From positions 32,001 through 96,000 of IMG/VR virus record IMGVR_UViG_3300021978_000001: a stretch of DNA of 64,000 nt; one strand, 5' to 3'. The notes under the pieces are model-generated. The model was given only the letters and a program-made list of their open reading frames with translations. It was not told the origin of the DNA and made no database searches. Origin of the DNA: a virus (lineage: Duplodnaviria; Caudoviricetes). The position numbers were made by a program, and so were the translations under genes. Of the stretch, positions 8-53,691 are shown piece after piece. Every line of letters starts with the position of its first letter. The stretch's first letter is position 1.

Positions 8-3000
8 GTGAGCGGTGTTGCGGTCGCGACCCTCGAAGTGGTCCGCGCCGAAGACCTGGACATCGTGGTGACGGCCCCCACGGGCTTGCGCGTGCGTCGT
101 CGCTCCAATGCGGTCGAGCTTGTCTGGGCACAGAACCAGGAACCCGCCGTGCTCGGGTACCATGTCTACGCTGCAACCGAGGCGGGCGGCGGGGAGGTCG
201 GATACTCCAGGCTCAACCGAGATCTGATCACCGAAGCGGCTTTCTCGGAAGACGCGCTCGTCGATGTCGAGTCCTCGGTGCTCACCTACAACAGCCAGGG
301 TGCATCGTTGCGTGTGCTCTTGACGGATGAAGACTTCGATGATGTCGCGCTCCAGACCGTGGGGAACTTCACGCTGGATACCGCGATTGCCGCGTCTCCT
401 CTCCAGGTCACGACGTCGGTGCAGAGCGTGCGCACCACAACCTATTCCAACTTCATCCATAATCGCCAGGCGACCGAGGCCGAAGGGACCATCAACAATG
501 AACTCTTCGTCGCGACCCCTGATGATGAGCCGCTCTTTTACGTGATCACAGCAGTGGCGTATGATGCCGTGACCAACCAACAGATCGAGAGCATCTACAG
601 CTCGGAGCTTGTGGGGCAACCCCTCGTCATCACCACACAGCTCACCGAGGTTCAACCTCGCACGCGCGAAGAGATCGTGCGTGAGTATCTCGATACCCTT
701 GTCACGAAGCAAAACAACCTGTCTGCCATCCCGGGTGGGGTCACGCGTGATGTGCATATCGACCCTCCTGCCAGTGAAGCAGAGCGGTTGCACTTTATCG
801 CGGACTTCGTGCGCCGGTCACGTTCGTTCGCGACCCTCGTGGCGATTGATGACCTCGATGGTGATGGGGTCACCGATCCTGTCAACTCGTACAAGCTCGC
901 GATGCAAGCTGCGTTCGGTTTCGAGAACCTAAGCGATGTCCAGCTCTTGATCGACGATGCCTTCGATGCCCTCGCGGGGAACGTGGACCGCCCGAGGAAA
1001 GGTCAGACACAGGCGACAGGACAGGCCGTCTTCTATACATCGACCGAGCCTACGACCGATCGCGTGGTCGAAGTGGGTACGGTCATCTCGACGCAAGGGT
1101 CACCCTCGGTGACGTTCGAGACCACAGCGCGCGCGGTGATCCCCTTTGCAGACCGTGCGAGCTATTACAACCTCTCGACCAGGCGTTACGAGATCACGGT
1201 ACCTATTCGTGCCTTGAACGCGGGCGCCAGCGGGAACGTCGCGGCAGGGCAAATCACCACCGTGATCGGGACAGGCACGAGCCTCCAGGTGATCAACCAG
1301 GAAGCGACGCGGTTTGGCGCGGATCAGGAAGACAACATCTCTCTTGCCGAGCGTGGCATCCTCGCGTTCTCCTCGGTCGATGCAGGGACAGGCCCCGGTT
1401 ACCTCTCGACCGCGCTCGAACAGGTGGGTGTGTTCCGCGCGCTCGTGCAGAAAGCGCGCGATCCCTTCATGGTGCGCGATTGGGATGAAGTCCGCATGAA
1501 GCAGATCGGCGGGAAGGTCGATGTCTGGGTCCAGGGGTCGGACTTGCGCCAGGTCACCGAGAGCTTCGCGCTCTCTTTCGACGTAGCAAGGGACATCCAG
1601 TTTGTCCTCGACTCCAACCCTGCGGATCTCATCTTCGTGACCAATGACCCACGCATCACACCGTCTTCCCCGATCACGGAGATCCTCGGGTCTACCGCGC
1701 TCCAGGTCTCTCAAGGCTTTGGTTTCCGCAACGCCACGACAGGGCAGGACTTCGACGTCACGGGCGCCACGATCCTCGGGTTCAACCGCATCCAACTCGA
1801 TAACGGGATCGCACAGCCCGCGCTCGCGGTCAATGACCTGGTACTCGGGGATGTGCGTTATCAGTCTGGCTCGCTCTATGCGCCCTTGCAACAGCCCATC
1901 TTCTCGGTCACATCCCTACGCTCTACCACAGGGAACGTGGCCTTGACCGAAGGTGTACAGTACACACTGGTGCAATCGCAAGATCCCTTGCTCGAAGGGT
2001 ACTCGACGCGTGCGCAAGATAGCGTGCGCATCACCCCCTCGGGCGGCATTCCTGCGGGAGACCAGACCGTGGTCAATGATGAGCGTCAGGTGCTCGTGGG
2101 GCAGACACCGATCCCGCTCGACAACCTCGGGGTCAACGGGCTTACCGTGCGTGTCTTTAACCTTGCGCGCACCGTGGAGTATGCAGGACCATCGAGCGCG
2201 AACCCGGACTTCCTTGTCGTGCAAGGAGATGAGACGACGCCAACCACGGTTCAACGCACCTCGACAGGGAACATCACCAATGGCGAAGAGGTCTCGGTCG
2301 ATTATCTTCATGACGAGAACTTCGAGATCAACTACACGGTCAACAACCTCCCCTCGACCGTCCAGGCTGCGATTGATGTTCAGAGTCACGTGACCGCTGA
2401 CGTCCTGGTCAAACAAGCGATCATGAATGAGATCGACTTCGAGATGACGGTGGTGCTCTCTCCGAGCGTCTCGCGAGCGCAGGTGGACGCGCGCATCCGT
2501 ACAGGGCTCTCTCAGCTCCTCAACTCCAAGGGCATCGGGGAGGGCATCTATCAATCGGATGTGGTCCGTGTGATCGAAAACACCGCAGGCGTGCTGTACG
2601 TGGTCGTACCGTTTGCGAAAATGGCAGTCGCAGATGATGCCCTCATCTTGAGGGAGACCCTGAACCCGGTGACCACGTTCCTCGAAGGGCGCGGCGCGAT
2701 CAAGGCGTATGTATTCTCGGACGCGCTCGACTACGCGACCCAGGATGGTGGTGGCCCTGCCGATACCCCTGTAGGCGTTTTCTTGAACACCCAGGCCATC
2801 ACGCTTGTCTCGACCTACAATGAACTGTTCAACACGTCCCCGAGCGCGCTGATTGTCGGGAGGCTCGGGCGCACGATTCCGGGATACAGCGATGATGTGA
2901 CCTTGACCGCGCAGGGGTTCAACACGAGCGCAGAACGTGAGGCAGAGCGCTTGCGCTTGACCGCCAATCGCGTCTTCGTGGGCTTCCCGGATGGTTCGGT

Positions 3001-3124
3001 GCCTGATGATGAGATGTGGAACGTCACGTACCTGGCGCAGGGGGATGAGGGCAGCAAGTCCGTGGTCCCCAGCCCCGTCACGTATGTTGAACTCGGGCAG
3101 CTCTCGATCACGTATCAGCAATAA
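8..3124 (+). CDS. Baseplate J-like (wedge) protein, long form with N-terminal Fn3-like segment
   Basis: Baseplate-J-type segment (ATGQAVFY...GTVIST...FETT...VPIRALNAGASGNVAAGQIT...GADQEDNISLAER) and C-terminal VVRVIENTAGVLYV; adjacent to a P2 gpI-like gene. The start is at the window edge and may be upstream. Confidence 0.8.
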   Translation: MSGVAVATLEVVRAEDLDIVVTAPTGLRVRRRSNAVELVWAQNQEPAVLGYHVYAATEAGGGEVGYSRLNRDLITEAAFSEDALVDVESSVLTYNSQGASLRVLLTDEDFDDVALQTVGNFTLDTAIAASPLQVTTSVQSVRTTTYSNFIHNRQATEAEGTINNELFVATPDDEPLFYVITAVAYDAVTNQQIESIYSSELVGQPLVITTQLTEVQPRTREEIVREYLDTLVTKQNNLSAIPGGVTRDVHIDPPASEAERLHFIADFVRRSRSFATLVAIDDLDGDGVTDPVNSYKLAMQAAFGFENLSDVQLLIDDAFDALAGNVDRPRKGQTQATGQAVFYTSTEPTTDRVVEVGTVISTQGSPSVTFETTARAVIPFADRASYYNLSTRRYEITVPIRALNAGASGNVAAGQITTVIGTGTSLQVINQEATRFGADQEDNISLAERGILAFSSVDAGTGPGYLSTALEQVGVFRALVQKARDPFMVRDWDEVRMKQIGGKVDVWVQGSDLRQVTESFALSFDVARDIQFVLDSNPADLIFVTNDPRITPSSPITEILGSTALQVSQGFGFRNATTGQDFDVTGATILGFNRIQLDNGIAQPALAVNDLVLGDVRYQSGSLYAPLQQPIFSVTSLRSTTGNVALTEGVQYTLVQSQDPLLEGYSTRAQDSVRITPSGGIPAGDQTVVNDERQVLVGQTPIPLDNLGVNGLTVRVFNLARTVEYAGPSSANPDFLVVQGDETTPTTVQRTSTGNITNGEEVSVDYLHDENFEINYTVNNLPSTVQAAIDVQSHVTADVLVKQAIMNEIDFEMTVVLSPSVSRAQVDARIRTGLSQLLNSKGIGEGIYQSDVVRVIENTAGVLYVVVPFAKMAVADDALILRETLNPVTTFLEGRGAIKAYVFSDALDYATQDGGGPADTPVGVFLNTQAITLVSTYNELFNTSPSALIVGRLGRTIPGYSDDVTLTAQGFNTSAEREAERLRLTANRVFVGFPDGSVPDDEMWNVTYLAQGDEGSKSVVPSPVTYVELGQLSITYQQ

Positions 3125-3147: not shown

Positions 3148-4854
3148 ATGCCCAACAGCTTTCAAGGCGGTCGTCAATTCCCCCTTCCCTTGAACGAGGA
3201 AGGCAAGGGTTACGAGAACCAGCTCGCCGCGCGCGAGCGTGGGATCACGTCTGCCTTGCTCAACCTGTTGCCCTCGAACTATGAATCCACGGTCGTGGGT
3301 CCAAACTACACGTTGTACCTCAAGGCGTTTGCCAAGGAACTCGCGCGCATCACGATGGTCCTCGAACGCGTCGCGGAGGGCATGAGCTTCGAGCGTGTGC
3401 CGAGTGATTTCTTGTGGGAGACGGTGGGCTACCTCGTGTTTGTCAACGGCAAACTCCCCGAGCTGGGTTTCGATGATGAGAGTTTTCGCGAGTTTCTCCT
3501 CACGGTGATCCAGATCTACTTCCAGGGCTCGACGCCGGAAGCCATCGCGCAGGGCATCGCGCTGTTTACGGACACCACGTTCACCGTCCGCGAGCTTTAC
3601 CAGGACGCGAGGCAGCCTGGCTCGGTGTATGACATCTCGGATCAGTTCGGGTTCGCGATCGACTTCGAGCTACAGGGGCAATTCCCCACAAACCCTTTCG
3701 ACCTCGACGCGAACACCAGGCTCTTGCTCGAACTCATCCGACCCGCGCACACGCTCTATCAGCTCAGGTATGTCTTCACCGAGGACATCGGAGAGCTTGT
3801 GGACAACATCACCGATACGGTGAGCTATGATCTGCGCCTCTACCATTATGAAGAGACACGCAAGTATTGCGCGGGGCTAAGAGGCTTCGAGTCCACGACG
3901 GGGTTGATCGAGACCCCGGACCTGAGCTTGATCACAGACACCGACGCGACAAAGCCGATCACGAGCCCCAACCAGGGCGCGCGCTTGACGGTCTTTTCTG
4001 GTGTGAACACGGGTATCTATGAAGTCGTGGGTGCGGTGGGGGATGCGCTCCAGGTCTATCCACCCTTCAAGCAAGCTGAAGAGAACGTCGCGTACAAGGT
4101 CGAGATCGACCGCTACGGTCACAAGAAAGAGGTGTTCGTTACTGGGGAGACCCCGAAGACCTCCATTCAGCTCGACCGCTTTACCGTGGACGCAGGAGGC
4201 CCGTATACCGTCGCAGAGTTCAACAACCTCCTCCTTACTGCTACTGTGTCGGGGGAAGCAGGCGCGGTCACGTACACATGGGACCTTGACGGGGATAACG
4301 TCTTCGGGGATGCCACAGGCAGCGCGCCCACGTTCGCAGCCAAGAATGGTCCCGATGAGCAAACCGTGGTCGTCAAGGCGACAGACAGCCTCGGGCGGGT
4401 CTCCAAAGCGTTCGCATTGATCACGATCGAAGACGATGGCCAGGTGCAAGGTTACGGGACAGGTACAGGGAATGCGAACCCCACGACCTCGGTCTTCGGG
4501 GTGGCGTCTGCGTCCTCCTCGGGATCGGCTACCGTCGTCGCACAGAAGATCAAATTCGCGTCAGCGACCGCGAGCAGCACAGGCAACGGTACCGTTGGTA
4601 GCACCAAGAGTGTGTCCAGCACGGTCACCGGCGCAGGCGCAGGCACAGGCACCTCATCCCCTGCACTCAACGCAGCGGGAAGCGTTGCTTCCACGGGAGC
4701 AGGCTCGGGTAGCGCGACAGGTGTTCGCGTGCGGCCAGGAGCATCCTCGGGGGCAGGAACGGGCTCGGGTAGCGCCGCTCCCAACACCACGGCATCCGGG
4801 GGCGCGAGTGGCTCCGGTAGCGGCTCCGGTAGCGCGAGCGGCACGGGACCATAA
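3148..4854 (+). CDS. Baseplate wedge / P2 gpI-like (DUF2313-like) protein with PKD-like domain and Gly/Ser/Ala/Thr-rich C-terminal tail
   Basis: Follows the J-like gene; ...YFQGSTPEAIAQGIALFT...LLELIRPAHTLY pattern; PKD-like VTYTWDLDGDNVFGDA; low-complexity GSGSG/ASG tail. Confidence 0.65.
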   Translation: MPNSFQGGRQFPLPLNEEGKGYENQLAARERGITSALLNLLPSNYESTVVGPNYTLYLKAFAKELARITMVLERVAEGMSFERVPSDFLWETVGYLVFVNGKLPELGFDDESFREFLLTVIQIYFQGSTPEAIAQGIALFTDTTFTVRELYQDARQPGSVYDISDQFGFAIDFELQGQFPTNPFDLDANTRLLLELIRPAHTLYQLRYVFTEDIGELVDNITDTVSYDLRLYHYEETRKYCAGLRGFESTTGLIETPDLSLITDTDATKPITSPNQGARLTVFSGVNTGIYEVVGAVGDALQVYPPFKQAEENVAYKVEIDRYGHKKEVFVTGETPKTSIQLDRFTVDAGGPYTVAEFNNLLLTATVSGEAGAVTYTWDLDGDNVFGDATGSAPTFAAKNGPDEQTVVVKATDSLGRVSKAFALITIEDDGQVQGYGTGTGNANPTTSVFGVASASSSGSATVVAQKIKFASATASSTGNGTVGSTKSVSSTVTGAGAGTGTSSPALNAAGSVASTGAGSGSATGVRVRPGASSGAGTGSGSAAPNTTASGGASGSGSGSGSASGTGP

Positions 4855-4858
4855 AGTC

Positions 4859-4887
4859 TTTACAGCGCATGCACCTTGTGGTAGCAA
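4859..4887 (+). promoter_or_regulatory. Repeated early-type (sigma70-like) promoter
   Basis: TTTACA-17 nt ending TTGTGG-TAGCAA, followed by GAGG; same pattern as 9 other copies. Confidence 0.7.
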
Positions 4888-4924
4888 GAGGAGAACGTTT
4901 CTCCTAACACCCAAGGGATAAGAC

Positions 4925-5488
4925 ATGACCACGCCACTCCTTAACCGCCTCATGACGTTTCCATCTCCTACACAGATGCTCCAGGTGTATACGGGCACCG
5001 AAAAGCCTGAACCGTACACGATCTGGTTCAAGGCGTCCCCACGTGATGAGCCTTTCGATTCGTTTCTCTTCGCTCTCAGCGACACCTTTGACGGCGCGAA
5101 CAAGCCCGTCCCCGTGCGCGTGAAGATGGATGCGGCGCGTTTTATCAAACGCGCGAGAGCCTACCAGAGCTTCCTCAAGAAAGAAGCGCGAGAAGAGCTT
5201 GATGCGGGCCTCGAAGTGACCACGCTTATGGAAGCCACACGCATTCTCGCGACCTATCACGAGATGGTGACCTTCCCCACCGAGAGCCAGGAGCCCATGC
5301 GATGTGCCTATATCCACCTCGTGCATTATATCATGCCCGAAGGCGTGGAGAACCCCACGCCGTTCGCGCTGCGTGTGGAGGTCGTGCACGGTGATGAGAG
5401 CGCACCCTGTGATTGTTGGGACATCGCCATGTCCGAGAAGGACCTCGACTCCCTCCTGGACGTCATCGCACCGCAAGGTGACGCATGA
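4925..5488 (+). CDS. Hypothetical protein (187 aa)
   Basis: ORF just downstream of the repeated promoter; ATGA overlap with the next ORF. Confidence 0.7.
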   Translation: MTTPLLNRLMTFPSPTQMLQVYTGTEKPEPYTIWFKASPRDEPFDSFLFALSDTFDGANKPVPVRVKMDAARFIKRARAYQSFLKKEAREELDAGLEVTTLMEATRILATYHEMVTFPTESQEPMRCAYIHLVHYIMPEGVENPTPFALRVEVVHGDESAPCDCWDIAMSEKDLDSLLDVIAPQGDA

Positions 5489-5943
5489 GCCTTGAAGGAC
5501 GATTGCTGTGTGTCCTCGAAGGCGTCGAGCACCCAGACGAGCAATATTGGCTTGAGTTGTGGTACCAGCCTCCCAATCGCTTCCATCTCCTGACCAGGGG
5601 CCATGAAGGGTATGAGGTGCTCTGGCGCTTCGATCTCGATCTGCACGTGTTCCTGTCCAACCTGGAGCGGGCACTCCTGACCATGCACGTGGGGTCGAGG
5701 TTCAAGTTTCTCTCAGCCCGAGAGCAGGTCCGTGTGAGCAAAAGAGACGCATGGCAGGTACAACGCGATACGTGTTGTGATGGTATCACCCTCCATGCCC
5801 GACGAGACCCGAGCTTTCCCTATCTCCTCTTCTTTGACTTCTACCAGAAGCGCACACGCGTTGATGTTGGCCTGGAGATGTACGTGAAGCGGGAAGCCTT
5901 GTGGGAGATGATCAACCACATCAATGGATTGGCGGGTACATAA
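5485..5943 (+). CDS. Hypothetical protein (152 aa)
   Basis: ATGA-coupled to the previous ORF; protein-like composition. Confidence 0.65.
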   Translation: MSLEGRLLCVLEGVEHPDEQYWLELWYQPPNRFHLLTRGHEGYEVLWRFDLDLHVFLSNLERALLTMHVGSRFKFLSAREQVRVSKRDAWQVQRDTCCDGITLHARRDPSFPYLLFFDFYQKRTRVDVGLEMYVKREALWEMINHINGLAGT

Positions 5944-5955
5944 TGTTCTTGTAAG
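5941..5955 (+). promoter_or_regulatory. Putative late promoter TAAT-N3-CTTGTAAG
   Basis: TAATGTTCTTGTAAG upstream of a structural gene; exact-pattern copies at 10560 (+) and 53677 (-). Confidence 0.55.
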
Positions 5956-6010
5956 TGGTGGGGGTGGTAGCTTCGAGAGCATCCACCCCTTTACTTCGAG
6001 AGCAAACACC

Positions 6011-6394
6011 ATGAGTGACCTGAGCGATTATCTGGAAGCCGCGCTGCTCGATCACGCGTTCCGCAATACACCTTATAGTGCACCCGCGACGGTGTACCTG
6101 GCGCTCTACACGACAGATCCCGCAGATGATAACTCGGGCACTGAGGTCGCGGGCGCGGGGTATGCACGTCAAGCGGTGACCTTCGATCGTACCCTGAACA
6201 CGATCACGAACAACATCGCCGTGAGCTACACGGCGACGGGGGGCAACTACGGCACCGTGACACACATCGGTGTCCTCGATGCGCTCGCAGCGGGTAACCT
6301 GATGTTCCGCGCGGCCTTGACGACCCCCAAGACCATCGAGGATGGGGATACGTTGACGTTCGCGATCGGAGACATTGACTTCACGCTTGATTGA
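6011..6394 (+). CDS. Small virion structural / tail-fibre-associated protein (mycobacteriophage Gp80-like family)
   Basis: MSDLSDYLEAALLDHAFRNTPYSAPATVYLALYTTDP...GTEVAGAGYARQAVTF...THIGVLDALAAGNLMF...TIEDGDTLTFAIGDIDFTLD is the typical pattern of this family; start reassigned from 5924 to ATG 6011. Confidence 0.8.
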   Translation: MSDLSDYLEAALLDHAFRNTPYSAPATVYLALYTTDPADDNSGTEVAGAGYARQAVTFDRTLNTITNNIAVSYTATGGNYGTVTHIGVLDALAAGNLMFRAALTTPKTIEDGDTLTFAIGDIDFTLD

Positions 6395-6425: not shown

Positions 6426-7514
6426 ATGAATAGAAGAGCACTCGCACAACGTGTCGCGTTTACCTATGGTTGCAACCGAGGGTTTTACGCGCCCATGCAA
6501 ACACGAGAAGCACACCTCATGGTGCTCTCGCGCATGGTGTTTGCCAAGGCCAAAGAACTCAAGGCGCTCGACTACACGATCGGCCTCGTAAGGCGTTACC
6601 CCGACAAGCTCGACAACAAGTATCCTGATATGCGCCCCAAGCTCATCGAGCTGCGTCAGGCTGTCCAGAACGGCTTCTCGATGAAGACCTTGCTCGACAA
6701 CCAGGAGATCTTGAGTCGCCTGGGATCACGCCTCTCGCGTGAGATTGTGGAGACCGATGGTGAGTTCGGGGAGTTCTTCCCCAAGCTCAAGAGCTTCCTT
6801 GGAGACTTCGAGGACAGTACCGAGGCGTACCTCAAGAGCTTGCGTGGTGATTACGAGCAGATGATCGCCAAGGCACTCGGGGTATCGGTTTCTGATCTCT
6901 TGCGTGGTGGGCGTATCCCGATGGATAAGATCGAAGACGCTTATCAAGTGATGTTCGATGACCTGGACGCGCACTTCAAGGACATCATGGCTACCATCAA
7001 GCGCGTGGGCGCAGAAGCAGGAGGGGGCTTCAAGATCAAGGGGCGCCTCAAGGCTCCTGGATCTGTGGCGGGAAAGATCCGCGAGCGCCTCGCACGTGGC
7101 GAGGCGACTGCGCTCGACTTCCTGGACTTCAGTGATCTCGTAGGAACACGCGTGATTGCGAAGGACCTCCAGGGTGTCCTCGCCGCCATGAGTCACATCG
7201 AAAAGACCTTCAAGGGGAAGGTCCTTCGCAAGCGAAACTACTACCTCGTGGCCAACAACCGCAACCCTTACCAGGGTGTCAACTACATCATCGCGCTCGG
7301 GCCATACATGGTCGAGCTTCAGGTGTCTGCGGAGCTGGACCGCATCGCGGCCAACCTCATGCACGATTTGACCTACTCTGATGAGAAGGCTTTCGTGAAG
7401 CTCAATGATGAGCAGAAATCCCTGATCGCGCTGGTGATTGATCTGTTGACGCAGCTCTCTTTCCGAGAATGGCAACAGATCATCTCACCCACGCTTGCCG
7501 AGTTCTCGGTCTAG
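6426..7514 (+). CDS. RelA/SpoT-family small alarmone synthetase (SAS)-like nucleotidyltransferase with long N-terminal helical region
   Basis: Synthetase motifs in order: GRLKAPGSVAGK (RxKxxxSxxxK), DLVGTRVI (DxxGxR), PYQGVNY (GYxSxH position), VELQV (ExQ), LMHDLTY (EHxxxY). RBS AAGGAA before ATG 6426. Confidence 0.75.
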   Translation: MNRRALAQRVAFTYGCNRGFYAPMQTREAHLMVLSRMVFAKAKELKALDYTIGLVRRYPDKLDNKYPDMRPKLIELRQAVQNGFSMKTLLDNQEILSRLGSRLSREIVETDGEFGEFFPKLKSFLGDFEDSTEAYLKSLRGDYEQMIAKALGVSVSDLLRGGRIPMDKIEDAYQVMFDDLDAHFKDIMATIKRVGAEAGGGFKIKGRLKAPGSVAGKIRERLARGEATALDFLDFSDLVGTRVIAKDLQGVLAAMSHIEKTFKGKVLRKRNYYLVANNRNPYQGVNYIIALGPYMVELQVSAELDRIAANLMHDLTYSDEKAFVKLNDEQKSLIALVIDLLTQLSFREWQQIISPTLAEFSV

Positions 7515-7720
7515 TCCTCGACCTCGACCACCATCACACCGCGCCTCGATCGCCCGACCCGGACCTTATCCCCGGGTCGGGTTTTTTCTGGGAACGCCTC
7601 TGCGTTGAAGCGCTCCTCTCCCTCCTCGAAACGCACGACCACGAAGGTCTCCCACTCGGTCTTCTCTTTCTCCACACGCACGACCTCTCCTGGTCGCATC
7701 TTCACTTCTTCGGCAGTCAT
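7511..7720 (-). CDS. Small hypothetical beta-rich (OB/SH3-like) protein, 69 aa
   Basis: Strong RBS AAGGAGG; downstream of the repeated promoter at 7779-7807. Confidence 0.7.
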   Translation of the reverse strand: MTAEEVKMRPGEVVRVEKEKTEWETFVVVRFEEGEERFNAEAFPEKTRPGDKVRVGRSRRGVMVVEVED

Positions 7721-7778
7721 GGCATACCTCCTTGCTTTGCGGTTTCATGACAATGCCCCGCGCTCGCGGGTACATGTA

Positions 7779-7807
7779 CTGGTACCACAAGCCGGGGCAG
7801 GTGTAAA
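7779..7807 (-). promoter_or_regulatory. Repeated early-type promoter
   Basis: Minus strand TTTACA-N17 (ending TTGTGG)-TACCAG. Confidence 0.7.
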
Positions 7808-7824
7808 AGTTATTCGAGCCTTTT

Positions 7825-8253
7825 TCAGTAATCCCATTCGATGGTGTAGCCCATCTTGAAGTACGACAGGAACCGAAACGCGGTCTTGCGCATCTCACCG
7901 CGCTTCATACTAGCGGCGTACTGCTCTGCACTCAAACCAAGCGAGGGACAGCGCCTCGTGATGAGGCGGGCCTGATCCATGGTCTGAGCCATCTCCCTCC
8001 CCTTGCTCCACTGCTGGTCAGCAGCCTCCCAGTAGTCATACGTGAACACCCCGTCATCCCCCCTGTCCAGGTCTTCGATGAGCGCCAGCAAGGCGCTCGC
8101 AGCCTGCTCGGGTTGCTCGCACTTGTCGAGCCTGGGGTAACCCACATCTTCCGTGGCCATCAAGATGTTCCCTCGACACCGAGCGAACGAGGAGATCGGC
8201 TCTGATGCTTCAGGCATCCCCTCTGGTGCGATAACTTCGATTCCAACTCCCAT
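7825..8253 (-). CDS. Hypothetical protein (142 aa)
   Basis: Starts 3 nt after the stop of the DUF4942-like gene, with an AGAGG RBS. Confidence 0.7.
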   Translation of the reverse strand: MGVGIEVIAPEGMPEASEPISSFARCRGNILMATEDVGYPRLDKCEQPEQAASALLALIEDLDRGDDGVFTYDYWEAADQQWSKGREMAQTMDQARLITRRCPSLGLSAEQYAASMKRGEMRKTAFRFLSYFKMGYTIEWDY

Positions 8254-10559: not shown

Positions 10560-10574
10560 TAATGCTCTTGTAAG
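10560..10574 (+). promoter_or_regulatory. Putative late promoter TAAT-N3-CTTGTAAG
   Basis: TAATGCTCTTGTAAG about 45 nt upstream of a lone plus-strand gene. Confidence 0.55.
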
Positions 10575-30483: not shown

Positions 30484-33400
30484 TCAGGTGGAGTCCTGAG
30501 ACTCACGCACGGATTGCAACATCGCATCATAGAGCGCGCGAGTCGGAGAGGACTCTCCAAATATGAAATCCTCTTCCTGACCTTCCTGATTGCCCAGCAA
30601 GCGCTGCCCGAGCGCGCCCTCGATGTATCCCATCTTGCGATCCAGGGTCTTGGCGACGTGGCGATCAATCGTCGCCTCACCGAAGGGACCTTCCGAGATC
30701 ATGTGAATAGCATACACGGATTGGTGCGGTGAGCCAATACGAATCATTCGACCAACGAGCTGAAGATAATCCCCTGCGGACCATGGGAGGTCAAAGAAGA
30801 CCATCACGCGTGCTTCCTGGAGGTTCAAGGCTTCTGCGCCCGCCATGGTCAAGAAGATGAGGTTTGTGCCTTCCGTACCAACAAACGCCTGCCTCCCCGC
30901 TTCACGCTCCTCGCTCGACTCCGCACCTGTGACACGTACCAAGCCTTGCTTGCACTCTGTGCGCGGTTGCCATTCTCCTGTGTGATCTTGAGCGATGCCG
31001 AGTTCGTAACCCTTGTCTGCCAGTAGCTCCTGGAGACGGTCCACCATCTTACGAAAGCGCGTGAAGACAATCACCTTCTCCCCTGCAAGCTCGCCTTCGA
31101 GCATATCCATCAACATCTCGACCTTGTGCGAGATGCCTTCATTGCCGATCAGGTAGAGGTCATTGACGATCTCCTGGCAATAAATGAGCTGCGTGAGGTG
31201 ACTGGTCTCCACCGCAGCATCATCTGCATCAGGGTCAATCAAGCTCGCCTCTGCGACCATCTCGTGAGCCTCGTTCACCGTCAAGAGACCCTCTACCGCG
31301 TCCTGGTAGTGCTTCCACTGGGACCGAGACATCGGCACCACGACTTCCTTCGTGGTGAGCGTCGGGAGTTCCTTGGCGACCGTGTGCTTGGCTCGTCCAA
31401 GGTAGTAGGGGTCGATGCGCTCTCGGAAAAGCTGGACGTGATCTCGGGAGTGTCCTACAATCACGGGCACCTTGCGCCCCCTCCCGATGGGCTGCATCTT
31501 GGTGACACAGAAGTTGCGCATGAAGCCCTTCTCCGAGCTGAAGAGCCCAGGCACGACCACCGAGTAGATGCCAAACCCTTCGAGGAGGTTGTTCTTGATA
31601 AGGGTTGCCGTGATGCCATAGGCGCGCCACGCGTGCTCTGCGAGTCTCTTGGCGGCGGTATGTGTCGCAGATGAGGGAGACTTCACCGCAGCACAGTTAG
31701 AGACCAGGGTGCCTCCTGCGAAGTAATTATGATTCCCCTCTACCTCCAAATCATACACATATTTTTCAGGACGTGCAGGTTCCCATGCCTCTACAGAAAC
31801 CACATGATCAATCACCGTAGCATCAAGAGAAGGCATATCAGGAGACACATAGGGATCATGGTCGGGAAACTTGTACTCAACACCAGGCAAGGCGCCAGGG
31901 AGGAGGTCCAAGAAGGCGCGCGCTGCTTCATCCGGGAGATAAATCACATAGAAGTCTCCTGTGCGTCCCTTACGCGTCTTGACTTGAGCATCTACGCCCC
32001 ACTTCCAACGCAACCATCCAGCCAAAAGCTCATTTTCTTCTCGCGTAAAACCATGCGTACTCAACTCGATCTGGTAAACGCGACGACCCTTTTTACGCTC
32101 TCTCACGGACAGCGAACCATCGTCGGCATACCAAACAGCCAACCCCAATGGCTCGATCTTATCCAACCACGCGGTAGTGATCTGCTTTCGATTTTTATAA
32201 AACCCGGCTGTCTTGATCGTAGCGGTGATATGCGCATTCGCATGAGTATTGAAACACAAGGTCGAGGAACCTCCTTCGTAGCCAGAAGGCTCTTCACGTA
32301 GAGAAGAGGTACCCAGGGTACCCAAAACCTTCTGTTTCCACTCCATATAGTCGGACTGAGCTATGCCTTGCCTGAAAGCAACGGAAGGACACGCACGTTG
32401 AGGGTTGGAGAGAGAGGCATCTCCCAGTAATCCCCCATAAATGATCTGCTGTTGCTCTGTTGTTGGAGGCTTGCTGTTGAAATGGAGAACTTGGTCACCA
32501 GGCTTGAGCTTGCTGGCTCGAACCTTTGTGCCATCAGGACGATAAATCTTGTGCGTAGACGTACAGCGCACGCTGTTACCATGCGCAAAGGTGATTTTAA
32601 GCATTTTGTGCTTTTTGGTCACTTTGTTGCGCCACCAATTCACCACACGTCTAGGCTCTGTTTTACCTGTCTCAAAATTATAACTCATCACTTCTACATC
32701 TAACTTTTGGCACACAATCTTGCCGATCAGTTCCGTTGTACCATCCGCGAGCAGCACAGGAGTGTGATAATCAAAGCATTCATCCATCCACAAGGCGTAC
32801 TGGCGCCCGTCAAGGTGCTTCTTGAGCGTGCGGTAGTCGATGCGCATGCGCGGGTAGTTCAAGATCAGGACGCTGGGGTTCTCGGGGGACCACTCCTCGA
32901 AGAACTCATCATAGATCTTCTTGCGCTTGTCCGGGCCGCCATCGACCACCACGGTATCCACCCCGTTCGTGAACTTGTGAAACTCACCTGCCCATTGACG
33001 CATGGCGCTGGTGGTTGTGATCACGATCGGGATCAGGTTGGGTTCCCTGGTCCACATGTAGCACTGTGAGGAGATACACTCGGCGGTGTTATGACTGACC
33101 ACACCGTTGGCGACGAACCAGTGGCGGGGATCATCAACCTCGATGTCGAAAACCTCTGCTTCTCCCTCGGTGAGAGATACCACGGGATCGTAGAAGTAGC
33201 ACGACTCTTGGAGCGCGTTCAGATTTTGCCACGCAGACGTCCCCGTAAGCCCATGCTGCGCGCACACATCGAGGTAGTGCTCTAAAAATGCGTAGGAAGG
33301 GTTACGACCCCGGTTTCGGATGTTATTGAGCGTGTTGACGAAAGAGCAACCGAATTGCTTGAGGCCACTGCCCTTTCTATTCCCATTCCCCCCCGAACGC

Positions 33401-34662
33401 GACGTGACCGCTTTGAGGCGCGCTCGCAAGGGTTCGATCAAGGACTTGCAGCAGGGTATAACATCGTGATTCGGGTTCATCGAACGGTCGAGAGCGCTCT
33501 CCAAGGCGTCTCTCTTCCTGGAGGACACGAAGCCAATCTTGTCACGAAAGGCACGAGCATCTTGGCCGAAGATCGTCAGGCGCCAGTACGTGTTGTGTTC
33601 ATAATTCTTGACCACTTTCTCGCTACGGTTACTGACAATACCAAAGCGCGTGAGCATGATTTGGACCACGCGCCCAAGCTCTTCGGATGCAGTTGAAAAT
33701 TCAATACCACCACAGGGAAGCACGTGACCTTCACCTTCAAACAGCCCTCTCAGGAACTCGACGTTGCTTTCTCGGGTAGAACAGAGGATGAAATTTGGGA
33801 CTTGTTTATCCGCTGCTAGACCTTTATTCAAGCCGTTTTGCTTGAGGAAGTCGATAATTTGCACACTAGATACTAACTTATCTTTTACATCTGAAAGATC
33901 ATATCCAAATAAAGTAGAGGTAAGATGTCGAATATCTTCGTGGATCTCATGATTACGCTCTGGACATTGGGATATACTCAGGGTGTAATCGTTATTGAAC
34001 CAACCTTCCCCTACCACGTAACCGATCCAACGCGCAAAATCACCTGTTACCTTCGTAGGTAATTTATGAGATTTTGCCCAAGGCGATAAAGCTATATCGG
34101 TATCCAGAGTCGGTTCTTCAAGGGGAAAATCCATCTCACGTCTCTCGACGCAGATGTAATCCCCTTCTCGGAGATCTCGCATTTCTACCCATTGATGTTT
34201 GCAATCCCTCCACACGAGAAGCGGGTGGACTCTCGAACCCTCCACCTCGAAGTTGTAACGTGTACGCATCTTGATGGTCGGCTTTACCCCACCGTAATAA
34301 AAATTCTTGACAGGCAGTTTCTCTTCGTTCACGAGAACATGCCAATCCTGATCAACGGGCGCGAACGTGTCGGGTTCCATTCCCGACCAGTCATGCATAT
34401 CACCGATCTTGGTAAGGCCGTAAGTAGTTGTTACTAAAGAGTTTTTGGTCAGGCACTTGCCGAGCCCCGTATCGTCACCAACCACGAAGCGCTTGCGCAT
34501 CAGGAGGTGCATGACCATCTGTTTCTGGTAGTGACGCAAGGCAAACTCGACCTGCTCGCCGTTGGATTTGGTGATGTGCGTGACCAGGCGATCACAGGGG
34601 GGTAGGTCGATGGTCTCTGCTGCGCGGATGCGCTTGAGCTTCTCGTAGGTCTTATCTGACAT
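30484..34662 (-). CDS. SNF2-family helicase/ATPase precursor containing two inteins
   Basis: LRHYQ, GDDTGLGK/T, MDE/CA, GITATLIKNNL, KVIVFTRF, AGAEALNLQEA, DLPWSAGDYLQLVGRMIRIG. Confidence 0.92.
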   Translation of the reverse strand: MSDKTYEKLKRIRAAETIDLPPCDRLVTHITKSNGEQVEFALRHYQKQMVMHLLMRKRFVVGDDTGLGKCLTKNSLVTTTYGLTKIGDMHDWSGMEPDTFAPVDQDWHVLVNEEKLPVKNFYYGGVKPTIKMRTRYNFEVEGSRVHPLLVWRDCKHQWVEMRDLREGDYICVERREMDFPLEEPTLDTDIALSPWAKSHKLPTKVTGDFARWIGYVVGEGWFNNDYTLSISQCPERNHEIHEDIRHLTSTLFGYDLSDVKDKLVSSVQIIDFLKQNGLNKGLAADKQVPNFILCSTRESNVEFLRGLFEGEGHVLPCGGIEFSTASEELGRVVQIMLTRFGIVSNRSEKVVKNYEHNTYWRLTIFGQDARAFRDKIGFVSSRKRDALESALDRSMNPNHDVIPCCKSLIEPLRARLKAVTSRSGGNGNRKGSGLKQFGCSFVNTLNNIRNRGRNPSYAFLEHYLDVCAQHGLTGTSAWQNLNALQESCYFYDPVVSLTEGEAEVFDIEVDDPRHWFVANGVVSHNTAECISSQCYMWTREPNLIPIVITTTSAMRQWAGEFHKFTNGVDTVVVDGGPDKRKKIYDEFFEEWSPENPSVLILNYPRMRIDYRTLKKHLDGRQYALWMDECFDYHTPVLLADGTTELIGKIVCQKLDVEVMSYNFETGKTEPRRVVNWWRNKVTKKHKMLKITFAHGNSVRCTSTHKIYRPDGTKVRASKLKPGDQVLHFNSKPPTTEQQQIIYGGLLGDASLSNPQRACPSVAFRQGIAQSDYMEWKQKVLGTLGTSSLREEPSGYEGGSSTLCFNTHANAHITATIKTAGFYKNRKQITTAWLDKIEPLGLAVWYADDGSLSVRERKKGRRVYQIELSTHGFTREENELLAGWLRWKWGVDAQVKTRKGRTGDFYVIYLPDEAARAFLDLLPGALPGVEYKFPDHDPYVSPDMPSLDATVIDHVVSVEAWEPARPEKYVYDLEVEGNHNYFAGGTLVSNCAAVKSPSSATHTAAKRLAEHAWRAYGITATLIKNNLLEGFGIYSVVVPGLFSSEKGFMRNFCVTKMQPIGRGRKVPVIVGHSRDHVQLFRERIDPYYLGRAKHTVAKELPTLTTKEVVVPMSRSQWKHYQDAVEGLLTVNEAHEMVAEASLIDPDADDAAVETSHLTQLIYCQEIVNDLYLIGNEGISHKVEMLMDMLEGELAGEKVIVFTRFRKMVDRLQELLADKGYELGIAQDHTGEWQPRTECKQGLVRVTGAESSEEREAGRQAFVGTEGTNLIFLTMAGAEALNLQEARVMVFFDLPWSAGDYLQLVGRMIRIGSPHQSVYAIHMISEGPFGEATIDRHVAKTLDRKMGYIEGALGQRLLGNQEGQEEDFIFGESSPTRALYDAMLQSVRESQDST
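31696..32778 (-). mobile_element. Intein (361 aa) with LAGLIDADG endonuclease at SNF2 Walker B
   Basis: Starts CFDYHTPVLLADG after DE, ends YDLEVEGNHNYFAGGTLVSN before C; GGLLGDAS and AVWYADDGS blocks. Confidence 0.92.
33088..34455 (-). mobile_element. Intein (456 aa) with LAGLIDADG endonuclease at SNF2 Walker A
   Basis: Starts CLTKNSLV after GK, ends FDIEVDDPRHWFVANGVVSHN before T; GYVVGEG and FLRGLFEGEG blocks. Confidence 0.93.
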
Positions 34663-43931: not shown

Positions 43932-46900
43932 TTATGCGAAGTTGTTGTAGGTGTCCTGATCTACCGCCAAGGGCAAGAGATCGGTGACGCCTGCGCCGAT
44001 GGTAAAGTTGGTCGAACCACCCGAGTTGATCGCCGTGTTGCTAAAGAGCGTCGCGACTGCGTTGTTATCCCCCACGACAATCGCGCCCGAGTCTGTCCCG
44101 CTGACATAGTAGTTGCGGAACAAGCTGCCCGTGACGACAAGACGCCGTGGCGTAGCTCCCACCTCATCTTCAGTATAAATGCCATAGTCGCCTTCATACA
44201 ACGTCCCGGCAGCGATCCCAGTGGAGTGAGCGAAGCGACACCCTGTGACGATCACGCTCTCGGTCTCTCCCGTGATGCGGATCGCAGCGTTGGTGTTGTG
44301 GGTGAAATCACAATTCGAGAGTGTCACCTTGGGCTCGGTGTTCAAGCCAACGCCCCCCTCCTCGAACAGCATGATCTCACGCGTCAAGACATTGAGCGCG
44401 GTGCCATCGTTTCCAGGACGCAAGGCCGTGAAGTTGATCGTTGATTCCCCCATCACCAGGCTACCGCCCGTGATCTGAATCAATCGATCCGCGAACGCTA
44501 CCGTAGGTGAGTAGAGCATGGTCACGCCATGCATGGTCGTGGTGCATGTCGTCAGCAACAAACGCCCGGCAAACTCCGAGCCTGTCATCGTGATGGTCCC
44601 CGAGGTCATCTGCAACTCGGGATGGATCGAGGTTCCTCCTCCCGTGAGACCTTCACTCACAAAGCGCGAGTTGGAGATGTTCACTTGAGAGCCGTTTCCT
44701 CCCGAGAGCACCAGGACGTTCTCTGCGTAGGTGTTCTCGAACGAGAGCACCGCTTCCAATCCAGGGAGGAAGTTGAACGAAGAGGTATCCTGGCGCACAT
44801 CAAAGATCTGGCAATCCGAGAAGCTCACCTCTGCGTACTGGAGCGCCGTGCCCGCGAAGTCGTCGATGATGAGCTGGTCATTGCGGTAGCTAAAGCGCGT
44901 CCCCTCTGCCGAGAAGAACAGCTTCGCGCTCGCGCCGGTGCGTGCCACAAACCCGGAATCCTCGGAAAGTACGATGTCACACTGCGTGAAGCGCAACGCA
45001 GGGCCTACCGTGGAGGCATCCACACAGGATACGAGCGGCTGCTCGCCCTCCACCGCAATGAACGAATTGCGCGCTTGCACACTTGACCCTGCACCGTAAA
45101 GTACGATAGCAGGTTCGCGCCCCACGGTCTGATTCCTGGCGAAGAGCACGGAATCCTCGACAATGAGTTTGCTACCTGCGGCGGAGAACTCCACGAGGCG
45201 CTTGATGTCCGGGCTCGTCATCCTCACGCGCCGAAACTCCACGAGCGTCAACGCACTGACAAACGTTTCGATGTCATCGGTAGACTGAATCGTGAGGTCC
45301 TCGAACAAGATCTTGTCAGACGCCGTGGCACCGAGGTTGCGGAACATGTCCGGCGCGGTACCACCTGCCTGTGTACCGAAGTTATCGGTCGAGAGCGTTC
45401 CATTACGAATCGTGACATTGAACGCGCTCGTCGCGCTCCCTGCTGCCAGGCCATCTGACTGACCGAAAGCGAAAGGTCCTGTGCCCGCGCCTCCCGTGTA
45501 CTGTTCTACAGCGAGCGTATGCCCCCCGAGATCGAGGACGGTGTTGGAGGGGATGTACACGACATCGCCCGCAGGCTCGGTCAAGGTGAAGTTTTCGAGG
45601 AGCTTGACGACGAACGCCCCGTCCGGGTTGGTGATCGTCGTGTTCCTGAGCGCGACATAAGCCATCGCGCCCTTGAGCGTTCGGAACATCCCGTTGGCGC
45701 CCACCGTGATGACGTTGGCTTCGAGCTGCTTGTTGGCGTAGCGTCGAATGTCATACAAGTCCTCTGTTGTGATCGAAACGCCATCCCAATCCACTTGCAC
45801 CAGGGGAACGCCCGCGCCCGCGCCCGTCTCGAAGAGAGGATCGAAGGCACCGTCTGTAGAGTCGATCACCGCGAGCGCATACGTCTCGTAACTGAAGTAG
45901 ATGTAGTACGTGCCCACCGGATCACCCGAGAACTCGAACTGAGCCGCTGGCGCCGTACTGATCACCGTACCGCGAAGGTCCGTGAAGTTCGGGTGCTTGA
46001 CCACTGCCTGGGTCACATCGACCCGTGTCGCGGTCCCGAGGCTCGCCACCCCGCCCGAGATAACAAACTTCGGGTAGGTCTCGTTGGTCACCTGCGAGGC
46101 CCCACGCAAGCTCGCATCATAGGGTACACTGCGGCCAGAGGTGCCGCCCGAGAGCCGTACATCCTCGACATCCGATTCGATCTCTTGCGAGGCTGTATCA
46201 TAGCCCCACTCGCGCTCGATGCTCCCATCAAACGCGACTTCCTGGATGATGTTGTACGGCGTGGTTTCGGTGTCCACAGGGATACCGAACCCTGCATGCG
46301 CGTTGCCCGAGCCAAAGAACAGGTCTCCTGTAGCTTCAAAACGCAAGCGCGTTCCTGTCGCGTCGGTCACCGCGTCCACATTGAACGTCTGAGCGCTCAA
46401 GCCGAGCGCTCCCTCTGCGGCGGTGTATGCAGCTTCGAGGGAGGCCGCAAGCGTCGCGGCAGCAGGAGCAGGACCGGCTGCTTGCGTGTAGCCGAAAGGT
46501 ACACCGTTAGCAGTAATCTCGAAGACATCGTTGGCGCCGCCCACGACCACGGGCCAGGTGGACTCGTATGCCGAGAACGCGCGCTTGCGTCCCTCGGTCA
46601 CGCGCCATTCATACTGGCTGTCCGTATCCTGGGAAGGGTCGAGCTTTGGACGCAGGGTGATTCCCAGCGTCCGTGCGCTCTGGCTGTTGTAGAGACCCAT
46701 GGTCAACGCGGTGCGTCCGAGACGACGTGAATCGACCCCGAGGCTGCGCGCTTCGAGCGTGGCGCCCTGGCTGTTGGCGACTGTCGATCCCGACTCGATC
46801 TGGAGCTGCTCGTTGCTCGACTGACCGTGATAAATCGAATCGCCTTCGGTGCTCGGGAGCTGGACCGTCAATCCCTGCTCCCCTACATCGAGGCTGACCT

Positions 46901-48338: not shown

Positions 48339-48342
48339 GAGT

Positions 48343-52971: not shown

Positions 52972-53631
52972 TCAAAACGTTAGCCGCCACGTAATTTGCA
53001 ACCGAGCCGTCGCGGGCTTGTTGATCACGGGGAACGTCAGATAGTTGCACAAGGTATCCTTGTTGCGCAAGTCTTCTGTGTCATCATACGGCCCGTTGGC
53101 GGGAGACACGGGGTTGGTCACCCCGAGGTCTTCCGAAATGTCTCCTCCCAACAATCCCATCTCGACCAGGGGACCCACCGCTTCCGACTGCGCGAAGGTG
53201 GTGGTAAGGTCGATGATGTTCGTGGGGTAAGACACCGGCGAGCCTCCCGAGTCCACGAAGGTCGTGGTCGAGAAGGTCTTTCTCGACAGCTCGGAGTAGA
53301 GCGCGCGTTGGGTGTTGGTCTCTGCGGGAGGGTTTTGCAAATCCCAACCCACATCTCCTGTCCCGATGGCCAGGGCATAGATGCCGTGGCGAGGCCCCAG
53401 AGGGTCGAGGCACAGGCGCGCGAGCAAGATGCTCATGTCCAGAGTCACGATGTTATGCGTCGCGACCTCTTCGACCCTGCCATCATCATGCAAGAGCGTG
53501 AAGAACACGTCCCCTTGAATGTGCTGACGACGACGGCCCTGGTAGCGATCACGATAAAGGGCGCCCATGGCCTGGCTTACTTCCGAGGCCATGCGGTGGA
53601 GTTTCCGGTAGAAATCGTTAAACAATGGCAT
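52972..53631 (-). CDS. Tail-collar / baseplate fibre-attachment-like protein
   Basis: NIVT...YALAIGTGD...PPAETNTQRALYSELSRK...TTTFAQSEAVGPLVEMGLLG...TFPVINKP...ITWRLTF pattern. Confidence 0.65.
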   Translation of the reverse strand: MPLFNDFYRKLHRMASEVSQAMGALYRDRYQGRRRQHIQGDVFFTLLHDDGRVEEVATHNIVTLDMSILLARLCLDPLGPRHGIYALAIGTGDVGWDLQNPPAETNTQRALYSELSRKTFSTTTFVDSGGSPVSYPTNIIDLTTTFAQSEAVGPLVEMGLLGGDISEDLGVTNPVSPANGPYDDTEDLRNKDTLCNYLTFPVINKPATARLQITWRLTF

Positions 53632-53676: not shown

Positions 53677-53691
53677 CTTACAAGTGAATTA
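53677..53691 (-). promoter_or_regulatory. Putative late promoter TAAT-N3-CTTGTAAG
   Basis: Minus strand TAATTCACTTGTAAG ahead of the 15-kb structural gene run. Confidence 0.6.

Follow-up and report, generated by a model that had tools for sequence, protein, structure and literature searches.

Toxic enzymes of the RelA/SpoT type have been described chiefly as weapons that bacteria use against phages or bacterial rivals, and to our knowledge their control by small antitoxins has been solved in few cases. In the solved structures of FaRel2 and Rel, the ATP donor site is formed by an R-x-K motif on strand beta1, an S/K helix, a D-x-x-G-x-R motif and an E-x-Q motif; two donor-site arginines sandwich the donor adenine, and the tyrosine of the G-loop stacks on the acceptor base (PMC11782079; bioRxiv 10.1101/670703). 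Alarmone synthetases present a large basic patch to the 5'-phosphates of the acceptor, which is much smaller in FaRel2, a toxic small alarmone synthetase (toxSAS) that targets tRNA (PMC11782079). Donor-site blocking accompanies tRNA-targeting toxSAS, whereas in the known (pp)pApp synthetases it is the acceptor site that is occluded (PMC11782079). In the solved ATfaRel2:FaRel2 complex the antitoxin adds an antiparallel strand alongside beta1, and the tyrosines of its Y-x-x-Y motif stack against R64 and R95, which keeps the ATP adenine out (PMC11782079). Known phage small alarmone hydrolases (SAHs) neutralise all toxSAS that were tested (PMC7229694), and reversal of tRNA pyrophosphorylation is a further SAH activity (10.1101/2021.04.30.441581). 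Here we describe a RelA/SpoT homologue (RSH) gene at positions 6426-7514 (plus strand) of a 64,000-nt stretch of viral DNA, hereafter the window, which comprises bases 32001-96000 of virus record IMGVR_UViG_3300021978_000001. The record spans 437,490 bp with direct terminal repeats at an estimated completeness of 100%, and near-identical DNA was found in marine and hydrothermal-vent metagenomes; no RNA data set containing this stretch is listed.

The gene was confirmed to encode a divergent protein with the RSH synthetase fold and a complete donor and catalytic site. Its stop codon overlaps that of a convergent gene, orf69 (7511-7720, minus strand), encoding a 69-aa acidic small beta-barrel protein that is predicted to inhibit the enzyme at the ATP-donor site. 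We favour, at a probability of about 0.55, the reading that the locus encodes a toxSAS-like pyrophosphokinase under regulation, kept inactive by a small plug in its donor site.

Gene, fold and active site of the RSH protein

The RSH open reading frame (ORF) encodes 362 amino acids, is preceded by AAGGA 7-11 nt upstream and starts with an ATG at 6426, which agrees with the aligned N-termini of its relatives. Residues 206-320 of this basic protein (isoelectric point (pI) 9.1) match the Pfam family RelA_SpoT (PF04607) with 39.2 bits (E 9e-10; cut-off 27), and no other gene of the 437-kb genome has a Pfam match to this family. The best profile matches were RelQ and RelP (E 3e-8 to 5e-8), with the FaRel2 profile at E 0.05. 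In a full-length AlphaFold2 (AF2) model computed on 29 sequences (pLDDT 79, pTM 0.76), helices extend through residue 197, beta1 begins at residue 203 and a single helix follows the SYNTH core, so that a C-terminal pZFD domain is absent from the model. Residues ~165-358 lie on the RSH synthetase fold according to Foldseek and an exhaustive VIA search, with Z-scores of 12.8 for RelQ (root-mean-square deviation 3.6, 176 aligned residues), 12.4 for RelP, 11.7 for an exported small alarmone synthetase, 11.3 for CapRel, 10.8 for Rel, 8.8 for Tas1 and 6.8 for FaRel2; unrelated nucleotidyltransferases reached just Z 6-7 against the same model. The RelQ equivalog NF053588 (GTPPhKinYjbM) of NCBIfam scored 12.4 bits against a cut-off of 320, and the PADLOC model PDC-S33 matched weakly (E 3.6e-4, 18 bits). 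Using the single RSH protein as query, phmmer found nothing significant among PDB sequences, tblastn no match in 50,697 phage records and a related-locus search nothing in viral contigs, and a word-index protein search returned a 96% identical copy alone. Compared with the sister phage (locus L008), the gene carries 56 synonymous and 13 non-synonymous codon changes, which indicates purifying selection.

A sequence-only reading of the window had noted that the synthetase motifs occur in order, with the variants PYQGVNY and ELQVSA. Profile alignments to RelQ and RelP map both as claimed, placing NPYQGVNY (Y282-Q-G-V-N286) at GYxSxH and E297-L-Q299-V-S301-A302 at ExQIRT. The donor and catalytic residues R207, K209, S213, K217, D237, G240, R242, E297, Q299 and H313 are all kept, as is the G-loop tyrosine Y282, and the donor residues map onto R64, K66, S70, K74, D90, G93, R95, E145 and Q147 of FaRel2 (PMC11782079). 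The same reading had described the acceptor-binding positions as altered. This stands for two basic acceptor-side residues, the canonical histidine, replaced by N286, and the arginine or lysine of ExQI[RK]T, replaced by S301; it does not extend to the E and Q of ELQVSA, which both belong to the donor site and are intact.

The proposed N-terminal helical region of about 200 residues was recovered in the AF2 model, where residues 1-198 (6426-7019, plus strand) are all-helical. They precede the SYNTH (pyrophosphokinase) domain, which comprises residues 199-362 and the stop codon (7020-7514, plus strand) and is delimited by PF04607, the Foldseek and VIA matches and motif conservation. Modelled alone, the N-terminal region gave a poor result (pLDDT 67, pTM 0.36), against pLDDT 75-90 for these residues within the full-length model; because the region folds poorly alone but well in the full-length protein, the models suggest that the helices pack on the SYNTH core instead of forming a separate domain. 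The region contains a family-invariant D49 and a short R-[VI]-A peptide that is conserved across the RSH family. Pfam matched it in none of 29 members, and VIA and Atlas searches gave no structural match. A degenerate HD domain was considered for this region and rejected, as no HD match was obtained in any of the 29 members, the isolated model was too poor for searching and the Atlas gave no usable match.

As a separate observation, a [KRQ]-x-L-A-x-x-V-[AT] peptide opens three otherwise unrelated window proteins, encoded from 6426 (plus strand), 10619 (plus strand) and 15157 (minus strand). The pattern occurs six times in ~135,000 residues (gene set without the 10619 ORF), and throughout the RSH family the peptide is kept at the N-terminus. 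Wider homology between the RSH protein and the two other proteins was rejected, since profile comparison shows none.

Convergent gene orf69 and the predicted inhibitor complex

The stop codons of orf69 and the RSH gene overlap within CTAG, and orf69 is preceded by a strong Shine-Dalgarno sequence (AAGGAGG, 7727-7733). Codons 1-57 differ from those of the sister phage by seven synonymous and no non-synonymous changes, and orf69 is a real gene under purifying selection. Its product is acidic (pI 5.1), resembles a small beta-barrel among Atlas look-alikes and has no homologues outside its own cluster or phage clade. The RSH gene had been described as lacking an adjacent antitoxin, which is probably wrong: the convergent orf69 is under selection and its product is predicted to sit over the ATP-donor site, and relatives carry a convergent SAH-like partner.

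Complex prediction of the RSH protein with the orf69 product gave ipSAE values of 0.82, 0.81 and 0.82, compared with 0.00 in all three controls, with a partner pLDDT of 85-86 and contacts that were 100% concordant between runs. In the calibration of this score, 58 of 80 solved complexes attained the mark, as did two of 110 mismatched pairs. The predicted interface includes residues 203, 205-211, 213 and 242 of the enzyme, i.e. beta1 with R207 and K209, S213 and R242, as well as residues 59-75, 181 and 184 of its helical region; on the orf69 side it includes residues 20-24, 26, 36-42 and 58-63. Among the predicted residue pairs with the least expected error are R207:W23 and R242:W23, and W23 is predicted to sit between these two arginines, which hold the donor adenine. 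The orf69 protein has W23-x-x-F26 where ATfaRel2 has Y-x-x-Y. If the tryptophan plug is real, the same inhibition trick would have arisen independently on a different fold, which would support the rule that links donor blocking with tRNA targeting.

An RSH family on phage-like DNA with convergent partners

An exhaustive family search covering 1.84 billion representatives yielded 76 hits, 28 of which span both the helical region and the SYNTH domain and were aligned. These relatives are 24-36% identical to the query, compared with 96% within its own clade, and were recovered at E-values down to 1e-33 outside that clade. The family comprises about 30 full-length relatives, and every family locus that was fetched looks phage-like. 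Counted over 29 relatives, K209, K217, D237, E297, Q299 and H313 are invariant and R207 is present in 28; RelA_SpoT (Pfam) matches 28 of the 29 at E-values up to 1. Specific to the family are the invariant residues D49 in the helical region, K269 and N271 and a characteristic Y-N-A-[IV]-[NH]-Y motif, and the query matches. Position 301 is occupied by lysine in 25 relatives and by arginine in one, with serine in the clade of this phage, so that S301, judging from the alignment, is a loss particular to this clade. At position 286, asparagine (17/29) and histidine (12/29) both occur.

Several more distant hits covered the SYNTH domain alone and were seen in other domain arrangements. P0031, P0042 and P0048 combine cNMP-binding, RelA_SpoT and HD_4 domains, P0054 and P0070 combine annexin repeats with RelA_SpoT, and P0067 consists of Phage_portal_3 with a C-terminal RelA_SpoT domain.

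Ten lineages of the family were surveyed for partner genes. In eight of them an opposite-strand gene abuts or overlaps the 3' end of the enzyme gene, with distances from a 31-nt overlap to a 31-nt gap, and six of these eight convergent partners are SAH-like proteins with the RSH hydrolase fold. Five of the six are mutually homologous (BLASTP E 1e-56 to 1e-11), and the sixth (L005) is weakly similar. For the L002 partner, matches to Rel hydrolase domains, a SAH and a (p)ppApp hydrolase range from E 5e-6 to 3e-4, and the SAH encoded by the phage described here is matched at E 2e-5. The HP...HD...ED...D metal site is kept in three partners (L002:7921-8556, L013:2208-2756 and L014:1730-2272, all minus strand) and missing from the other three (L004:4576-5049, L012:3510-3989 and L005:6570-7037, all minus strand), which may be pseudo-hydrolases that act by binding. 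The L009 partner is an unrelated hydrophobic protein, and one family member is extended at its C-terminus and lacks a convergent gene. The survey therefore indicates that the family is normally guarded. In the phage described here the convergent gene is orf69, whose product is unrelated to the SAH-like partners of the relatives. The next minus-strand ORF, orf142 (7825-8253), was considered as a remnant SAH partner and rejected for want of similarity.

A stand-alone SAH is encoded elsewhere in the genome, at C1:151927-152478 (minus strand; equivalent to L007:1327-1878, outside the window). It matches HD_4 at E 4e-14 with intact HP, HD, ED and D motifs, is the only HD_4 gene of the genome and lies ~113 kb from the RSH gene amid apparent tRNA genes. 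The RSH protein could accordingly be an alarmone synthetase producing (p)ppGpp and/or (p)ppApp that is used together with this separate SAH to set the stringent-response or purine state of the infected host, with orf69 a mere neighbour. We regard this explanation, the main rival, as possible, if doubtful. The housekeeping enzymes RelQ and RelP are the closest structures (Z 12.8 and 12.4), the family consensus retains the lysine of ExQI[RK]T and, in 12 of 29 relatives, the histidine of GYxSxH, the partners of some relatives retain the catalytic HD/ED/D residues, and the genome holds a bona fide SAH. Against it, neither the K/R nor the H is retained in this clade (S301 and N286), and the inhibitor is predicted at the donor site, in contrast to the acceptor-site block of known (pp)pApp synthetases (PMC11782079). 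A SAH partner is also no proof of an alarmone product, since SAHs act on pyrophosphorylated tRNA too (10.1101/2021.04.30.441581).

The departures of the acceptor-side motifs from the canon could alternatively mark a catalytically dead RSH-fold scaffold or nucleotide sensor, as could the Y282F exchange in the sister phage and the methionine that replaces the second adenine-stacking arginine in five of 29 relatives. This is a most improbable explanation: all donor-site and metal-binding residues are kept here, with K209, K217, D237, E297 and Q299 invariant in the family, the gene is under strong purifying selection, and an inert protein would have no need of neutraliser-type partners.

Acceptor and proposed mechanism

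The sequence-only reading had raised a non-guanosine acceptor, which is plausible given the loss of two acceptor-side basic residues, although the choice of acceptor cannot be read from the sequence. Because the acceptor basic patch shrinks in the tRNA-targeting FaRel2 and two basic residues are lost here, a non-guanosine acceptor is a fair inference, and GDP or GTP is probably not the acceptor. Within the preferred reading of a plugged toxSAS-like enzyme we lean towards the tRNA 3'-CCA end or adenosine nucleotides.

We hypothesize that the protein is an active RelA/SpoT-type pyrophosphokinase that would transfer pyrophosphate from ATP to a 3'-OH group. It belongs to a subfamily, so far seen on phage-like contigs alone, in which ~200 helical residues would pack on the synthetase core and the module would consist of two genes placed tail-to-tail, the enzyme and its putative neutraliser. 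The neutraliser would be a SAH-like protein, active or degenerate, in most lineages and the 69-aa beta-barrel protein of orf69 in this phage clade. The orf69 protein is predicted to extend the beta-sheet of the enzyme at beta1 and to push W23 of its W23-x-x-F26 motif between R207 and R242, which would shut ATP out until the inhibitor is removed. This lineage has lost two basic residues, the histidine now N286 and the arginine or lysine now S301, that grip the acceptor 5'-phosphates in (p)ppGpp synthetases. Phage-phage competition or control of host translation are possible roles. The subfamily stands out by a new N-terminal region, a fixed tail-to-tail layout and a putative neutraliser that has been exchanged in evolution between an active hydrolase, a dead hydrolase and an unrelated beta-barrel.

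A more specific scenario, which we consider unlikely, is that a tRNA 3'-CCA pyrophosphokinase is released from orf69 at a set time by a tRNA-rich giant phage and disables the tRNAs of the host, with the phage's own tRNAs and SAH sustaining phage translation; the convergent promoters and overlapping 3' ends would then constitute a switch between enzyme and inhibitor. If true, this would represent a phage-side translation takeover built from parts otherwise known in bacterial anti-phage toxins. A gene for an IF1-like protein (Pfam eIF-1a) was observed in the sister phage a few kb from the enzyme (L008:16751-16969, minus strand) and by synteny is probably also present here; its position near the enzyme fits a heavy investment of the phage in translation.

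Several points weigh against the plugged toxSAS-like enzyme. The score of the complex expresses the confidence of the model itself, no alignment was used in folding the orf69 protein, which also lacks relatives for a covariation analysis, and the predicted pose copies the solved toxSAS-antitoxin complex, so that it may reflect model memory; binding of orf69 to the enzyme is accordingly a prediction. The orf69 protein is a beta-barrel rather than a pZFD, and its gene is convergent and not co-transcribed with the enzyme, unlike in classical toxSAS operons. By structure, housekeeping RelQ and RelP resemble the enzyme no less than any toxSAS does. N286 is shared by 17 of 29 relatives, hence a family trait, and the sister phage enzyme P0079 (L008:8001-9089) carries Y282F, which also occurs in two distant relatives; FaRel2 is impaired by the corresponding exchange (PMC11782079). 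No sequence feature that marks tRNA use emerged from the work of Kurata et al. (10.1101/2021.04.30.441581), and SaEAS, despite its resemblance to a (p)ppApp synthetase, favours guanylates (PMC12691689). The analysis establishes the gene layout with its promoters and terminator, the fold and motifs, the family and purifying selection; what the enzyme does, its toxicity, its acceptor and its role in biology are points that we infer.

Genomic setting and transcription signals

The RSH gene is the last of a plus-strand block at the window start. The block contains the Baseplate_J protein gene (8-3124), a 568-aa gene, two small genes without assigned function, the Gp80 fibre-I-like gene and the RSH gene. 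The two small genes, orf187 (4925-5488, plus strand), the first gene of the RSH unit, and orf152 (5485-5943, plus strand), which overlaps it, were taken from the ORF list and are kept in the sister phage locus; neither has a Pfam, PHROG or PADLOC match. The Gp80 fibre-I-like gene (6011-6394, plus strand; PF23140, E 1.2e-42; phrog_240, E 2e-28) ends 32 nt before the RSH gene, which bears out the earlier placement of this gene behind a virion structural gene. The coding strand switches at 7511, and the minus-strand genes that follow include those of the 69-aa and 142-aa ORFs, a DUF4942 protein and a metallophosphatase.

A sigma70-like promoter class, consisting of TTTAC[GA], a 17-nt spacer and an extended -10 inside CTTGTGGTA[TAC]CA, was recovered by k-mer enrichment with 36 exact copies genome-wide, and a position weight matrix (PWM) scan found 67 sites in the genome compared with none in shuffled sequence. 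In its dominant form TTTACG is followed by a 17-nt spacer and an extended -10 within CTTGTGGTAtCA, with the leader GTAAGTGTACGGACAAGACGACAACA conserved in many copies. One promoter of this class (4853-4890, plus strand; TTTACA, 17-nt spacer, extended -10 inside CTTGTGGTAGCA; PWM score 37.5) heads the unit of orf187, orf152, the gp80-like gene and the RSH gene, and another (7776-7813, minus strand; PWM score 36.2), which is conserved in the sister phage, serves orf69. In total, the PWM placed window sites at 4853(+), 7776(-), 9118(-), 11926(-), 13459(-), 14547(-), 17410(+), 20228(-), 54080(-), 63318(-) and 63885(-). The scan gave no site between 200 and 280 kb of the genome, and the class is not evidently the late class; a general late promoter motif sought upstream of genes in the 200-285 kb stretch yielded nothing convincing.

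The late-type promoter that had been proposed for the RSH gene corresponds to a TAAT-N3-CTTGTAAG motif at 5941-5955 (plus strand), upstream of the gp80-like gene. The motif is real and repeated, but nothing marks it as a late promoter. Copies occur at 5941-5955(+), 10560-10574(+) and 53677-53691(-), i.e. three in the window against 0.05 expected and none elsewhere in the 437 kb, each 28-63 nt upstream of a start codon, namely those of the gp80-like gene, orf142 and a 219-aa protein that weakly matches a baseplate-wedge fibre-network family. The last copy precedes a cluster at 53631 and below with weak tail-fibre-type matches, including a beta-helix on a large ORF (43932-48353). The motif may represent a minor class of promoters or operators. 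A strong RNA hairpin (5944-6004, plus strand; minimum free energy -33.7 kcal/mol, z -5.6, 0/200 shuffles as stable) that separates orf152 from the gp80-like gene is a candidate attenuator or 5'-UTR structure. The plus-strand unit ends at an intrinsic terminator inside orf69 (7552-7588, plus strand), an 11-bp GC-rich stem followed by T6 that is identical in the sister phage. On the minus strand no terminator-like site was found until ~1 kb beyond the orf69 stop codon, and because of this the orf69 transcript may run antisense into the enzyme gene.

The position after the Gp80 fibre-like gene and near the Baseplate_J gene bears on the proposal that the protein is an unguarded late effector, packed in the tail or head of the virion for the next host or self-inhibited by its N-terminal region. 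In addition, the TAAT-N3 motif also stands ahead of the tail-fibre-like cluster, a portal-fused RSH domain exists (P0067), and one family member of 801 aa (L011:8001-10406, plus strand) has an N-terminal Peptidase_C39_2-like domain and lies between a 1720-aa sheath-like protein and terminase and portal genes; this C39-fused member may be a virion-associated version of the enzyme. A candidate capsid-loading tag, a helix-Pro-helix peptide of ~27 residues, was rebuilt as a profile from 11 genome proteins, which score 58-75 bits, compared with 2.6 bits for the RSH protein; no relative matches either, and Pfam detected no fusion to a virion protein. Siting beside structural genes is restricted to this phage and the C39-fused relative among the lineages examined, and most relatives lie amid small early-type, replication or nucleotide-metabolism genes. 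The unit is moreover headed by a sigma70-like promoter of the class absent from 200-280 kb, and a dedicated partner gene is predicted. Virion delivery of the RSH protein, as earlier proposed, thus found no support, and the unguarded late effector is very unlikely.

Outside the RSH unit, residues 734-935 of a helicase-like ORF of 1392 aa (30484-34662, minus strand) correspond to a LAGLIDADG homing-endonuclease segment, probably an intein.

Comparison with known systems

Like the MuF/Apk2-type virion-delivered (p)ppApp synthetase toxins of temperate phages, the protein carries a phage-borne RSH domain, encoded here near structural genes; unlike these toxins, it has no MuF, portal or other virion fusion, no Tis1-like immunity gene and no capsid tag. 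RelQ and RelP (PDB 5DEC, 6EWZ) are its best structure and profile matches and share the C-terminal helix after the SYNTH core. It differs from them by N286 for the histidine of GYxSxH, S301 for the arginine of ExQIRT and an equivalog score of 12 bits against 320, and the N-terminal helical region, which RelQ and RelP lack, the phage-like DNA and the partner gene are features of its own family.

With CapRel, a fused toxSAS-antitoxin (PDB 7ZTB; PMC9712102), and with PhRel/Gp29 of Phrann, the protein shares the SYNTH fold (CapRel Z 11.3) and donor-site control, the latter predicted here. CapRel and PhRel/Gp29 are phage- or prophage-borne and used in inter-phage conflict, and the enzyme described here is likewise carried by a phage. 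In contrast to CapRel, it lacks a C-terminal pZFD, its extra region is N-terminal and helical, its putative neutraliser is a separate protein, and its PADLOC PDC-S33 match is weak (18 bits). The FaRel/ATfaRel system of Cellulomonas marina, which has a SAH antitoxin (PMC7229694), is paralleled by six related lineages that pair a synthetase-like with a SAH-like gene and by the stand-alone SAH of this phage. Unlike in that system, the SAH here is ~113 kb away and the partner genes of the relatives are convergent instead of co-directional; three of the six lack the HD catalytic residues, and (pp)pApp synthesis would be putative for this family.

The closest parallel in the proposed mode of control is FaRel2:ATfaRel2 of Coprobacillus sp. 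D7 (PDB 8PU1/8PU3; PMC11782079), a tRNA-pyrophosphorylating toxSAS with a small protein antitoxin. FaRel2 is a weak match to the enzyme in structure (Z 6.8) and sequence (profile E 0.05) and lacks the ~200 additional N-terminal helical residues, which here form part of the predicted interface. ATfaRel2 is a pZFD with Y-x-x-Y, whereas orf69 encodes a beta-barrel with W-x-x-F; and unlike in the FaRel2 operon, which lies on a bacterial chromosome, the two genes here converge on overlapping stop codons from separate sigma70-like promoters, and the carrier is a 437-kb phage with terminal repeats. Both systems share the SYNTH fold, the donor-site residues, a neutraliser of ~70 aa (putative here) and a reduced acceptor-side basic patch, and in the predicted complex, as in the solved one, the sheet is extended at beta1 and an aromatic residue of an Ar-x-x-Ar motif is placed between the adenine-binding arginines, excluding ATP. 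Three features are new: an unrelated predicted inhibitor of 69 residues takes the place of the hydrolase, the acceptor-side lysine has been lost specifically in this lineage, and the enzyme gene is sited in a fibre-gene unit.

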